A stretch of 64,000 nt of DNA from contig OZ024747.1 of assembly GCA_964016885.1 (NCBI GenBank), positions 12,152,001-12,216,000 of the forward strand, read 5' to 3'. The DNA comes from Eledone cirrhosa (taxonomy: Eukaryota). The position numbers and the translations under genes are program-made. The notes under the pieces were generated by a model, which saw only the letters and a list, made by a program, of their open reading frames with translations, did not search any database and was not told where the DNA came from. Position 1 is the first letter of the stretch; each line of letters starts with the position of its first letter. Shown here one piece after another: positions 1 through 12,832 of the stretch.

Positions 1-389
1 TATAGGAAAAGGTATGACCCCGACGGCAGAGCTCAAGCCGTTTCGACGGCTATTTCTGAACTAAATTAGAATTTTTATATATATATATATATATATATAT
101 ATATAAAATCAGCATTAAACATCAGTTTTTTGCTTGCACTATATATACAGAGGGGTTTATAATAGTTGTACTGACTGAAGACAGGAACATTTAGCAGTGT
201 AGTAGAGTGTATACTATTTCTATAATTGGTACAAATTGAAGAGAGGAGCAGGCAACAGCTGTGTGTGTGTGTGTGTGTGTGTGTGTGTGTGTGTGTGTGT
301 GTGTGTGTGTGTGTGTGTGTGTGTGTGTGTGTATGTATATATATATATATATATATATATATATATATATGTGTGTGTGTGTGTATAGA

Positions 390-560
390 AGATCACACCA
401 CCTAGCTTTGACTTTGGAGGCAGTCGATTAACTGCCCTTAGTTATGACATCAGTAGCTGAATACACACCAACTTGAAAAGAGTGTGTATTCAGCTACTGA
501 CGTCAGAACTAAGGGCAGTTAATTGCCTGCCTCCAAAGTCAAAGATAGGTGGCGTGATCT
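390..560. mobile_element. Fold-back element, ~78-bp imperfect inverted arms, between (TA)n/(TG)n tracts
   Basis: gatcacaccacctagctttgactttggaggcag...gctgaatacacac (391-468) is the reverse complement of gtgtgtattcagctact...ggtggcgtgatc (482-559), with a few mismatches. Confidence 0.7.
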
Positions 561-1204
561 ACATATATATATTTATTTATAGAGAGAGGAGTGAAGATAT
601 TTGACCAAGAGACTGTGGTACGAACCAGAAAGTTTTCAAAAAATAGCCAGTAGACACAACATTACAATAACATGCTACAAATATGATATATTAAGTGGTG
701 GTGTGTGGTGTGTGTGTGGTGTGGTGTGTGGTGCGTGTGTGGATTAAGAGCTTCCTTCAGTCATAACTGACCATGAGTTTGCACCTAGAAAGTTCCTCTC
801 AAAGGCACAATCATGGACATGGTGTTTAACGAAAGACCAGCAGTCACCCATACATACCATTCTCCCCTCCCCCATGCCACACATCTTGTCCAAGGGAAAG
901 GCAAAGGCTGATACAACTTGACAAGTATCATCAACAGATGAACTTAGAACGTGAGGGGCTGAAAGAGATACAAAGTATCATGCCCGAGACCAACAATTCT
1001 GCCAACCTACTGCCAGTGGACTGGTAATTTATCAACCCCAAAAGGCTGGAAGGCAAAGTTGACCTTGGTAGGTTTTTAACTCAGAGCAGAGAGACCCAGA
1101 ACAAATACTGCAAAGCATTTCCATCTGACACTCCAACAATTCTGCCAATTCAATACCTAGTGGATGTGTGCATATATATATATATATATGATTTCATTTT
1201 GATG

Positions 1205-1529
1205 ATTTCATTTTACGTCCGCTTTTCCCTGCTTGCAAGGGTGGGACGGGAACTGATTCTGGCTTGATTTCTACAGCTGGATGCCCTTCCTAACACCAAC
1301 CTCATTTACAGTGAGTGCTGGGTGCTTTTTTGCCGTGGCACCTCCACAACCCCTTTGCAGTGGAATGATATGGACCCCAGTCCTATCATCTCATTTCTAC
1401 AGCTGAGTAAACTGGAGCAATGTGAAATAAAGTGTCTTGCTCAAGGAAACAACACATCACCCGGTCTGAGAATTGAACTCACAACCTTTCGATTGCAAGG
1501 CCAATGCTCTAACCACTAAGCCATGTGCC
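1205..1529 (-). mobile_element. tRNA-derived SINE with RTE-like 3' tail (family copies at ~13230-13432, 24917-25125, 53795-54122, 62700-62963)
   Basis: Minus-strand head GGCACATGGCTTAGTGGTTAGAGC...GAGTTCAATTCTC with A/B-box-like motifs; tail GGAAAAGCGGACGTAAAATGAAAT(GAT)n; several near-identical dispersed copies. Confidence 0.85.
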
Positions 1530-1725
1530 TTTATATATATATATCCCTTCCATATACTGTACCGATTGTGTTGTTATTTCTGTTTACCTTTTACATATAT
1601 ATATATATATATATACACACACATACACACACACACACACACATATATATTGATATGTGTGTATGTGCACATATGCACGTTAATGTACATGTGTTTGAGT
1701 GTGTGAGTGTGTATAACATAAATAA

Positions 1726-2116
1726 CATAAATACATGAAAACATGCATCAGTGAACAAGCCATCTATCATTTCCTCACAGAAAAGACTACAATTGTGAGG
1801 TGACCTTGAAGTGACCTTGACATTAACATTAAACTAAGATCAATGATATATAAAGATGTCATAACATGAACCAGGCAGTTAGAGAGAGAGAGAGAACAGA
1901 GTGGTCAATACTGACCAGAGACTCAGTGTCAGACCAATACATTGGTCAAGTCACTCTTTACTTACCGTACGACCATGGCTGTCCACTATAGTAATCTACA
2001 CAATGAGAAAATGGGGTCTAGTGGTAACAATAGACTGTGGGAGGTTATAGAGACTGTGTGGGACTGGGGATAACAATAGGGGGACGTTTAACAGTTATGT
2101 AGAGTTAACAACAGTG
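1726..2116. repeat. ~390-bp near-identical duplicate of 11501-11904, containing the 30-nt exon cassette
   Basis: Direct comparison: the visible differences are (AG)n length with a short adjacent indel and two substitutions (gtaacaatag/gtaataatag, gggacgttta/gggacattta). Confidence 0.95.
1966..1995 (-). CDS. AFDN: Candidate 30-nt microexon, copy A (ITIVDSHGRT in phase 0)
   Basis: Same splice signals and sequence as 11753-11782. Confidence 0.6.
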
Positions 2117-10760: not shown

Positions 10761-10802
10761 CTATGTGATATGTTGGAGGTGTATAGTATCTCATCCTCAT
10801 TA

Positions 10803-10985
10803 TTTGGCAGTATCGGTAGAGGGTCGGACGCCATGCTTTCCAGCATGGAGTTACGGCCCTTGCCATTCTGAGTTCAAATGCCGCCGAGGTTAACTTTGCT
10901 TTTCATCCTTACGGGGGTCGATAAAATAAAGTACCAGTCATGCACTGGGTAATTGCTGGCCTTGTGCCAAAAGTAGAAACAATTA
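10803..10985 (+). mobile_element. tRNA-derived SINE with Meta/RUDI-like central domain (other copies near 16393-16843 -, 17138-17315 -, 21985-22152 -, 29820-30755 + cluster, 31048-31230 -, 48400-48590 -, 50450-50845 +, 54490-54680 +, 56315-56505 -, 58900-59090 +)
   Basis: TGGCAGTATCGGTAGAG A-box-like and GAGTTCAAAT B-box-like motifs; family core GCCTTTCATCCTT.CGGGGTCGATAAAATAAAGTACCAG resembles the MetaSINE domain. Confidence 0.85.
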
Positions 10986-11752
10986 TTTAACATACCCTTT
11001 CCAAGTTGTCATAGATTAAACAGGTCAACACCGTCAAAACCTAGACAGGTTGGAAAACCATATTTTTCTCATACATTCAATATTTTGGCATAGTTTCAAC
11101 AGCTGGATACCTTTCCTAATGCAAATCACTTTATAGAGTGTACTAGGTATATTCTATTGTAGCATCAACACTAGAGAGGTTGTCAAGTCCTCAATAGAAC
11201 ATCTTGCTTATATGTGTCCATATTCTAGTATATACTGGGTATGTTTGATACTAGCACTAGTAAGGCTGTGATGCCCTTGACACAACTTACAGGATTCCTC
11301 ACTAAATTCTTTAACAAGGCATTGGTTAGCTCTTTTAGATGACAGCTCTCTGAGGTGCCACCAATAAAAAAAAAAATGATTTCAAACCAAATTACTTAAC
11401 CACATAGTTATCTTATACCTATATATATATATGTGTGTGAGCATGTCTGTGTGTGTGAGCATGTCTGTGTGTGTCTATGCATATGTATGTATATATGTGT
11501 CATAAATACATGAAAACATGCATCAGTGAACAAGCCATCTATCATTTCCTCACAGAAAAGACTACAATTGTGAGGTGACCTTGAAGTGACCTTGACATTA
11601 ACATTAAACTAAGATCAATGATATATAAAGATGTCATAACATGAACCAGGCAGTTAGAGAGAGAGAGAGAGAGAGAGAGACAACAGAGTGGTCAATACTG
11701 ACCAGAGACTCAGTGTCAGACCAATACATTGGTCAAGTCACTCTTTACTTAC

Positions 11753-11782
11753 CGTACGACCATGGCTGTCCACTATAGTAAT
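11753..11782 (-). CDS. AFDN: Candidate 30-nt microexon, copy B (ITIVDSHGRT in phase 0)
   Basis: cccattttctcattgtgtag|ATTACTATAGTGGACAGCCATGGTCGTACG|gtaagt; consensus donor, 3n length, no stop; identical to 1966-1995. Confidence 0.6.
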
Positions 11783-12832
11783 CTACACAATGAGAAAATG
11801 GGGTCTAGTGGTAATAATAGACTGTGGGAGGTTATAGAGACTGTGTGGGACTGGGGATAACAATAGGGGGACATTTAACAGTTATGTAGAGTTAACAACA
11901 GTGGGCAGGTTAACAAGAGGAAAACATTTAACAACAGTTATGTAGGGCTAACAACAGTGGGAGGGCTAACAACAGTGGGAAGGTTAACAACAGGGAGAAG
12001 GTTAACAACAATGTAAGATTGACAACAGGAGGAATTAACGGGGTTATTTAATAGGGGGGGGGGGGGTTAAAAACAGGTAACATGGACAGTTAACAGTGGG
12101 AGAGAGGGTAACAAATGGTGATTGGGCAACAACAGTAAAGCACTGTCGGGGTATTTTCTCTGCCCTGGGTCACTACCCAGTATAAATAGGGACTCACTTT
12201 GACTGCCTACCACTACTAATTACTAACTAGTATATAACTAGTATAATACAGTCAGTAAATAAATGTTTGGTTATTACCACTACTAATTACTAACTAGTAT
12301 AACTAGTATAATATAGTCAGTGAATGAATATGTTTATTAGACAAAATAACATATCTTGTGAGATGACATTTACTCAAGTTACCATTTAGACGTGTGTGTG
12401 GTCGGTGTGTAGTATATAGCCGGGGAAAACAGACGGAAAATGATATGACTAATAGAGTTGGTATCAGGGAGAACATCCAGCTGTAAAACAGTTTCAAATC
12501 ATCACATCCGAGATTAAGCTGACCTCCTACATATGTTGTATATCATAGGTTTCATGGGTGTTTTAATGATACTGATACTTGTCCTATCATAAAATATAAC
12601 AAAAAATTGAGTGTCTTGCCCAAGACTACAATACACTGAGTGTCTTGCCCAAGACTACAATGCACTGCCTTGTACAGGCATTGAATCCATGACCTTATGA
12701 TTATAAATCCAACACTAACCAACAGGCCAAGTGGTAAATACACACACACATATATAAACACACACACAATAAATATTTGTTCTACGGATACTGAGAGAGA
12801 GAGAGAGATAGAGATAGAGAGAGAGAGAAATG

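Follow-up and report, generated by a model that had tools for sequence, protein, structure and literature searches.

An octopod afadin gene with a duplicated microexon in its PDZ-splitting intron: near-identical cores between diverged flanks

The afadin gene and a microexon within its PDZ domain

The window, a 64,000-nt stretch of the Eledone cirrhosa genome, carries an octopod afadin/canoe gene on its minus strand. The afadin domains RA, FHA, DIL, and PDZ were found in the expected order by Pfam and tblastn (Table 1), and the tblastn alignments to other afadins are colinear, first half of the PDZ domain included. Across 14 ordinary afadin exons, 819 of 880 residues are identical to those of O. 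sinensis (93% overall). The exon at 16060 to 16182, which ends in phase 0 with ...GLSIVAAK, encodes the first half of the PDZ domain; 36 of its 41 residues are identical to those of both O. sinensis and O. bimaculoides, and its best PDB sequence matches are to the afadin PDZ domain (weak, E = 0.34 to 1.1). A search with this 41-amino-acid exon returned one unnamed 76-amino-acid record whose sequence runs on into this intron, confirming the position of the intron only. No match to the second PDZ half was found within positions 1 to 16059, and this interval can therefore be read as one intron that splits the PDZ domain.

TABLE 1 Coordinates of gene features, duplicated units, and repeats in the window
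Feature	Positions	Strand	Remarks
RA domain	52239-52460		Pfam
FHA domain	29508-29771		Pfam
DIL domain	23448-23852		Pfam
DIL-domain exon of afadin	22363-22797	minus	Pfam PF01843 and afadin matches; anchors gene identity
Upstream constitutive afadin exon	16060-16182	minus	AG/GT-bounded; 41 codons
Microexon copy 1 (transcript order)	11753-11782	minus	30 nt; ag/GTAAGT boundaries; 4277 nt past upstream exon
Microexon copy 2	1966-1995	minus	same letters as copy 1; lies 9757 nt downstream of it
Core, unit 1	1726-2117		exon with 122 nt of upstream and 240 nt of downstream intron
Core, unit 2	11501-11904		exon with 122 nt of upstream and about 250 nt of downstream intron
TGCATG hexamer	1742-1747	minus	219 nt downstream of donor, near core edge
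TGCATG hexamer	11517-11522	minus	231 nt downstream of donor
Block A, unit 1	157-259		degenerate tandem monomers, then (GT)n; 79-80% to both ends of unit-2 satellite region
Block A, unit 2	3728-7921		grown internally into 141-bp satellite
141-bp satellite	3778-7838		28.8 copies; 25 of 28 whole units identical
Block B, unit 1	592-682		74% to 8374-8467; above 300/300 shuffles
Block B, unit 2	8374-8467
Degenerate 18/19-bp repeats adjoining core 1	2120-2299		73% to 11907-12090
Degenerate 18/19-bp repeats adjoining core 2	11907-12090
20-bp minisatellite	8468-10760		114 copies; unit 2 only
19-bp minisatellite	2634-3488		45 copies; motif as in degenerate 18/19-bp repeats; far end of unit 1
Two dispersed repeats	1025-1529		1025-1152 and 1215-1529; unit 1 only
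Dispersed repeat of 1025-1152 family	10804-10989		unit 2; reverse orientation relative to 1025-1152

Within this intron lie two copies of a frame-preserving, stop-free microexon that encodes ITIVDSHGRT, and the reading frame required after ...SIVAAK is open through it. Microexon length cutoffs of 27 and 51 nt are both in use, and at 30 nt the exon falls within the second and beyond the first. The same 10 residues occur at the same PDZ junction in afadin isoform X3 of the other octopod, O. sinensis (P0272 in NCBI/UniRef/nr, residues 1009 to 1018; 10/10 match), which is an annotation model and carries one insert against the two genomic copies here. Among 206 scorable afadins, 205 have no insert, a count that excludes 3 unnamed records and the 28 of 234 that failed to match the scoring pattern, being truncated, not afadin, or of the oyster type; the insert was also absent from the 10 of these 28 inspected by eye. 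Four of the five closest afadin records have no insert; P0272 represents the included form, and the other octopod records, P0194, P0274, P0276, and P0277, represent the skipped form (a cross-species, annotation-based comparison). In a profile search of cluster representatives, multi-PDZ proteins crowded the result, of which 4 of 150 rows were examined. When retention of all 10 residues was simulated as neutral, its frequency was 0.094, 0.026, 0.007, and 0.0015 at assumed per-site interspecies divergences of 0.10, 0.15, 0.20, and 0.25, respectively. Because the exact X3 residues stand at this junction and 205 of 206 afadins do without them, these comparisons indicate that the microexon is real, alternative, and conserved between species. 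The original prediction had proposed that such an exon is functional, and the annotation of its peptide in X3 argues in the same direction.

Other readings of this region were rejected. A phase-1 reading (DYYSGQPWSY) conflicts with the phase-0 upstream intron, and its peptide is missing from the 117 proteins searched; a longer in-frame exon is precluded by an in-frame TAG before the microexon. The GTAAGT donors at 13896 and 11290 are without a G at -1, and the donor at 30566 sits within a repeat. The sequence GGTAAGT occurs six times on the minus strand: at three afadin exon ends, at the two microexons, and once in a repeat.

The cores that contain the microexons each hold a TGCATG, which we take to be a candidate RBFOX-type hexamer; the 16-kb intron has four on its minus strand, of which two lie within cores. 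A conserved RNA fold in the core was unsupported, being no better than shuffles (z = -0.84). None of 46 Rfam matches within positions 1 to 16200 reached its gathering score, and the sole match touching a core, sno_ZL1 (E = 0.16), overlaps the low-complexity edge of that core.

The exon has partial likenesses to two known classes. Neural microexons of the eMIC/SRRM4 type, as described in PMC8797185, have a long AG-exclusion zone, a UGC near the 3' splice site, and a weak donor. The octopod exon is likewise a very short frame-preserving cassette within a folded interaction domain, but AG occurs upstream at -24, -41, -60, and -70, no TGC was found upstream of either acceptor within the core-lying part of the 140 nt examined, and the donor is consensus rather than weak. 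Tandem duplicated exon substitution and mutually exclusive homologous exons also involve an internal coding exon copied in tandem, but the copies treated in PMC9741552 are diverged and swapped to alter the protein, whereas the octopod copies are letter-identical and optional. Nor is exactly one copy always included, the insert being missing from nearly all scorable afadins, and unlike mutually exclusive exons, the octopod copies show no feature that forces exclusivity across the 9757 nt between them. No paper on this microexon was found in the open-access literature; afadin goes unmentioned in the main text of 10.64898/2026.09.05.749416 (whose supplements cover O. bimaculoides tissue-specific exons and may list this one), in the available portions of PMC8797185, and in PMC9699675 with three of its supplement files.

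Two colinear units and their cores

It had been predicted that this intron contains an old tandem duplication, and the homology blocks named at the time are all present, on the same strand and colinear in two units within the one afadin intron, supporting an old duplication of the exon together with its intron flanks. Judged by score against 300 dinucleotide shuffles, blocks A and B, the core, and the post-core repeats each outscored all 300. In block A, positions 162 to 259 match 7820 to 7921 (75 matches, 19 mismatches; 80%) and positions 157 to 258 match 3728 to 3841 (81 and 21; 79%), the second match arising because block A of unit 2 has expanded into the 141-bp satellite. Block B (592 to 682 versus 8374 to 8467) has 67 matches and 23 mismatches (74%), and the degenerate repeats reported beside both cores are also homologous (2120 to 2299 versus 11907 to 12090; 121 and 44, 73%). 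That these likenesses reflect only a common repeat is ruled against for block A and the post-core repeats; block B is weakly threatened by a third, A-rich match near 48260 to 48330, with a score of 53 versus 69 to 75.

Insertions differ between the units. The dispersed repeat at 1215 to 1529 is 98% identical to 53807 to 54122. As part of the duplicated unit, the dispersed repeats were rejected: they stand in opposite orientation or different order in the two units and are thus independent insertions outside the homology. Outward alignments beyond about 157 to 2300 and 3728 to 12090 (three pairs tested) gave scores reached by 32 to 194 of 300 shuffles, the internal pair 740 to 1024 versus 10990 to 11400 did not rise above shuffles, and the microsatellite-like stretch immediately left of the core was at chance level (44 of 300 shuffles reached its score).

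In contrast to flanking blocks of 73 to 80% identity, the cores are nearly identical, with 390 matches, 2 transitions (at 2028/11815 and 2086/11873), and one 12-nt gap, which falls where an (AG)n repeat has 7 units in one core and 12 in the other. The pooled flanks differ in 86 of 349 columns (Jukes-Cantor [JC] distance, 0.30) and the core in 2 of 392 (Fisher exact test, P = 2e-28), in a comparison whose edges were picked after the data were seen and whose local alignments flatter flank identity. Uniform identity across core and flanks, which would have spoken against the original prediction, was not seen; divergence is about 25% in the flanks and 0.5% in the core. The mismatch rate of the core pair, 0.6%, is below that of every other masked self-match of at least 120 nt in the window (96 in all), the runner-up being at 1.9%. 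Its edges are sharp, with 0 to 2 mismatches per 30 columns inside and 3 to 13, plus gaps, outside. The identity extends into the degenerate minisatellite on one side and across (AG)n on the other and then stops abruptly, and the core therefore looks like a tract rather than the product of motif-wise constraint. Contiguous, sharply bounded, and far more similar than the paralogous sequence beside it, it has the form of a gene conversion tract.

How the cores may have stayed alike

The probable history, in our judgment, is that an old tandem duplication produced two identical microexons and that repeated gene conversion has kept the exon-centered island of ~390 nt identical. A single alternative microexon under purifying selection would have been present in the octopod ancestor, and a segment of roughly 1 to 2 kb would then have been duplicated head to tail. 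Constraint on the microexon and the splice signals beside it may have preserved enough likeness for continued ectopic conversion, with transposon insertions and satellite growth disrupting flank homology (Walsh-type "terminator" changes) and leaving the flanks to drift. A recent last homogenization would leave only the two substitutions and the microsatellite length change. Ectopic conversion of paralogues with terminator insertions, as treated in PMC3449122, yields concerted evolution, with divergence where indels or mobile elements break homology. The octopod locus shares with that case its close paralogues, homogenized tract, homology-breaking insertions, and dosage as a possible selective reason, but the earlier case involves gene paralogues, and the present one a 390-nt island around one microexon in one intron. 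The conversion reading is drawn from one genome.

A single recent conversion or template switch might instead have overwritten a decayed second copy, leaving one copy that matters and a twin that is passive or transient. Two substitutions and one microsatellite change suit one recent event, the region is full of young, homogenized arrays, and the annotated O. sinensis isoform holds one insert. We nonetheless consider this unlikely: a decayed copy at about 75% identity would be too dissimilar for homologous exchange, which requires high identity (PMC3449122), and the tract has the exon with its splice signals at its center.

It is decidedly unlikely that no exchange occurred and that strong purifying selection has separately kept an ultraconserved splicing element, comprising the exon and about 360 nt of intron, almost unchanged in each copy since the duplication. 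Vertebrates do have ultraconserved elements around regulated exons; here, the peptide is conserved at 10 of 10 positions across species, and the core takes in the acceptor region and ends just past the TGCATG hexamer. Selection alone, however, would need to suppress change about 60-fold (JC distance of 0.005 versus 0.30) at almost all positions in both redundant copies, degenerate repeats included, and to do so with sharp edges. No conserved fold was found in the core to explain such constraint, and the change in (AG)n length shows that some of the core can vary.

An assembly artifact, with divergent haplotypes set in tandem or a core homogenized by polishing, is very improbable, as the original prediction had also argued: a 0.5% difference with a microsatellite length change could represent two alleles, and the many long near-perfect arrays are hard for assemblers, but the flanks are ~25% different with unlike insertions, far above the ordinary allelic difference of about 1%, neither unit runs on into the other's outer flank, and a collapse would have rendered the cores identical, which they are not.

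Predicted effect of the insert and its meaning

By alignment, the insert falls where the beta2-beta3 loop of the PDZ domain begins. In the model with the insert, the PDZ core is preserved, 63 of 113 residues having a pLDDT above 90, and the best fold match is the afadin PDZ structure 3axa (E = 8.5e-11). Its strands span residues 22 to 32 and 38 to 52, and those of the skipped form span residues 22 to 26 and 37 to 42 with a short helix between. The modeling predicts, at low confidence, that the insert lengthens this hairpin, the insert region having a pLDDT of 54 at residues 31 to 40 and below 50 at residues 40 to 42, with no aligned rows covering it. Functionally, the insert would extend beta2, the strand with which the ligand pairs, into a long hairpin.

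Reports of splicing inside a PDZ domain are rare (PMC7094393). One case is PDZ2as (PDZ2b) of PTP-BL/PTP-Bas, in which an in-frame splice insert at the beginning of the beta2-beta3 loop displaces a glycine hinge; peptides of APC and RIL bind more weakly to this form because their on-rate is roughly tenfold lower (PMC4365404 and PMC7094393). The octopod insert is likewise alternative, in frame, and located at the beginning of this loop with the fold kept, its loop geometry being of low confidence; it differs in having 10 residues rather than 5, in belonging to another protein and phylum, and in being a cassette exon whose effect is predicted. By analogy with the PTP-BL PDZ2 insert, inclusion would likely lower or redirect C-terminal ligand binding. 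The bonds that the single PDZ domain of afadin makes with nectin-1 and JAM-A strengthen under force (bioRxiv 10.1101/2023.09.24.559210).

Two equal copies may raise the chance of inclusion, and a double insert of 20 residues is possible. It is quite unlikely, in our estimation, that selection maintains the identical microexons, each spliced independently, as a dosage device adding 0, 10, or 20 residues to the PDZ ligand strand, with conversion keeping the exon and its regulatory flanks in step.

The separate ingredients of this locus are already known; their combination is unusual. Twin exons of identical sequence complicate the mapping of transcript reads, and a junction that joins the two copies would be mistaken for a back-splice. 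The duplication offers a compact natural experiment in which selection and conversion would keep a 390-nt island at 99.5% identity as its neighbors drift to 75%. The insert, conserved and present here in one octopod record only, is a candidate lineage-specific adhesion switch. If the two copies did act as a dosage device, they would provide a three-step, tissue-regulated dial on adhesion at junctions or synapses and an instance of concerted evolution acting on a unit as small as one microexon.

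Two diverged units around a near-identical core

The original prediction of two colinear units in tandem is borne out by alignment, which places them on the same strand at about 157-2300 and 3728-12090, with three homologous flank pieces (block A, block B, and the post-core repeats) each scoring above 300 of 300 shuffles. Identity between the units is not uniform, being 79 to 80% in block A, 74% in block B, and 73% in the post-core repeats, whereas the cores (1726-2117 and 11501-11904) share 390 matches, their differences amounting to 2 transitions plus a single gap of 12 nt that falls in an (AG)n run. 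The predicted contrast between diverged flanks and core also holds: substitutions occupy 86 of 349 columns in the pooled flanks (JC 0.30) but 2 of 392 in the core (JC 0.005), whose edges, at both of which identity changes abruptly, were picked post hoc, after inspection of the data. Among 96 masked self-matches of at least 120 nt in the whole window, the core pair has the highest similarity. Block B has a weaker, A-rich third match at 48260-48330 (score 53), attributable either to chance or to a decayed dispersed element.

The minus strand encodes afadin/canoe, with RA, FHA, and DIL domains (Pfam), and afadins align to it colinearly. Over 14 exons identity is 93% to O. sinensis, 92% to O. bimaculoides, and 91% to Argonauta, versus about 60% to other molluscs, which marks the source as an octopod distinct from those three. 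The exon at 16060-16182 (-) has the C-terminal residues GLSIVAAK, in phase 0, and a search of 1-16059 for the second PDZ half gave no match, so both units lie inside the PDZ-splitting intron and the next constitutive exon falls outside the window.

The unequal lengths of the units reflect separate gains: in unit 2, a 141-bp satellite that expanded from block A, along with a 20-bp minisatellite; in unit 1, a 19-bp array. Dispersed repeats entered each unit independently. Of the 28 whole satellite units 25 are identical, so either the array arose very recently or the assembly inflates its size. The 19-bp array (2634-3488) and the degenerate post-core repeats (11891-12028) have one motif in common; read on the transcribed strand, this motif is found upstream of both microexon copies, is rich in pyrimidines, and contains the word TTAAC. 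Palindromes mostly adjoin (TA)n or (AG)n runs; 5 are in the PDZ-splitting intron, where they could form double-stranded RNA and possibly serve as editing substrates, and 2-55 matches the element at 12833-12918. The young dispersed family is consistent with a tRNA-derived SINE; a tRNA-like segment (1466-1523) in its first member scores slightly below the Rfam gathering level. Arrays built from dispersed-repeat pieces show that local amplification has been frequent in the afadin gene.

Microexon copies and repeats in the window
Feature	Positions	Strand	Remark
Microexon copies, 30 nt	11782-11753; 1995-1966	-	placed by tblastn
141-bp satellite	3778-7838		dimer of related 74- and 67-nt monomers
Long palindromes	390-560; 12833-12918; 13465-13532; 13748-13842; 14181-14293; 46883-47038		near-perfect (74-99%)
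Young dispersed repeat family	1215-1529; 13232-13432; 24916-25107; 53803-54122; 62708-62962		up to 98% identity
Tandem arrays of dispersed-repeat pieces	16534-16842; 33102-33861		45-bp units; 28-bp units, respectively

The microexon and its splicing signals

Both cores contain a 30-nt segment bounded on one side by an AG acceptor, itself preceded by a pyrimidine-rich stretch, and on the other by a G|GTAAGT donor; read in phase 0 the segment is open and translates to ITIVDSHGRT. Exactly these 10 residues stand between SIVAAK and GDGQMSR in O. sinensis afadin isoform X3, an annotation model; the exon is thus already represented in a database isoform. The four next-closest afadin records all lack the insert, which is present in 1 of 206 scorable afadins (234 examined). 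With an interspecies divergence of at least 0.15, which is an assumed figure, the chance of neutral 10/10 retention is at most 0.026, making retention without selection unlikely. Sequence comparison supports selection acting on the peptide, and we regard the microexon as real and functional for at least one copy. No paper on the exon or on homogenised twin microexons was found in the open-access literature searched; supplements beyond it may list the exon.

A TGCATG hexamer, which we take to be RBFOX-type, lies 219/231 nt downstream of the microexon copies, just within the tract edge. The intron contains 4 of these hexamers, two of which sit inside the cores, and as candidate splicing regulators they offer a lead only. 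RNA folding of the core gave nothing unusual, and an Rfam search returned no family reaching the gathering level. By sequence the exon does not resemble an eMIC-type microexon: the code described in PMC8797185 is missing from the intron upstream, where an AG falls at -24 and UGC does not occur near the acceptor.

Identity of the cores

The history we consider probable is one in which selection would first seed an island of likeness around the microexon, which conversion would subsequently maintain. A conversion tract accounts for a near-identical core that runs into a degenerate repeat and ends sharply. According to section 5 of PMC3449122, gene conversion is favoured when paralogues are closely similar, declines as they diverge, and ends where indels or mobile elements intervene; flanks interrupted by insertions and arrays fit the limits set out in that section. 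At the DNA level, the twin cores would thereby resemble paralogues under concerted evolution. The copies, being identical and optional, do not form a pair of mutually exclusive homologous exons as PMC9741552 uses the term.

A single recent overwrite, with one copy passive, could also yield like cores but is improbable. Selection alone is slightly less credible still: it is hard to square with redundant copies that agree at 99.5% over 360 nt of intron, or with near-identity that extends into the degenerate repeat and then stops sharply. An assembly artefact is very doubtful.

Predicted effect on the PDZ domain

AlphaFold2 models of the O. sinensis PDZ were made in insert and skip forms. With the insert the modeled fold is retained (mean pLDDT 80), and the top structural match is 3axa, afadin PDZ-nectin-3. 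Strands are extended, to 22-32 and 38-52 versus 22-26 and 37-42 in the skip form, and the insert residues themselves have low confidence (pLDDT 54). In PTP-BL, the splice-insert form PDZ2as has 5 extra residues where the beta2-beta3 loop starts, and these reduce ligand binding (PMC4365404, PMC7094393); the position matches that of the octopod insert. Oyster-type bivalve afadins (records P0301, P0288-P0294, and P0298) have a beta2-beta3 loop 2 residues longer than other afadins, indicating that this loop was altered independently in another mollusc lineage.

By analogy with PDZ2as, whose working at the protein level it appears to share, we infer that the octopod insert may tune afadin ligand binding. 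If both copies are used, the pair could act as a dial of 0, 10, or 20 residues.
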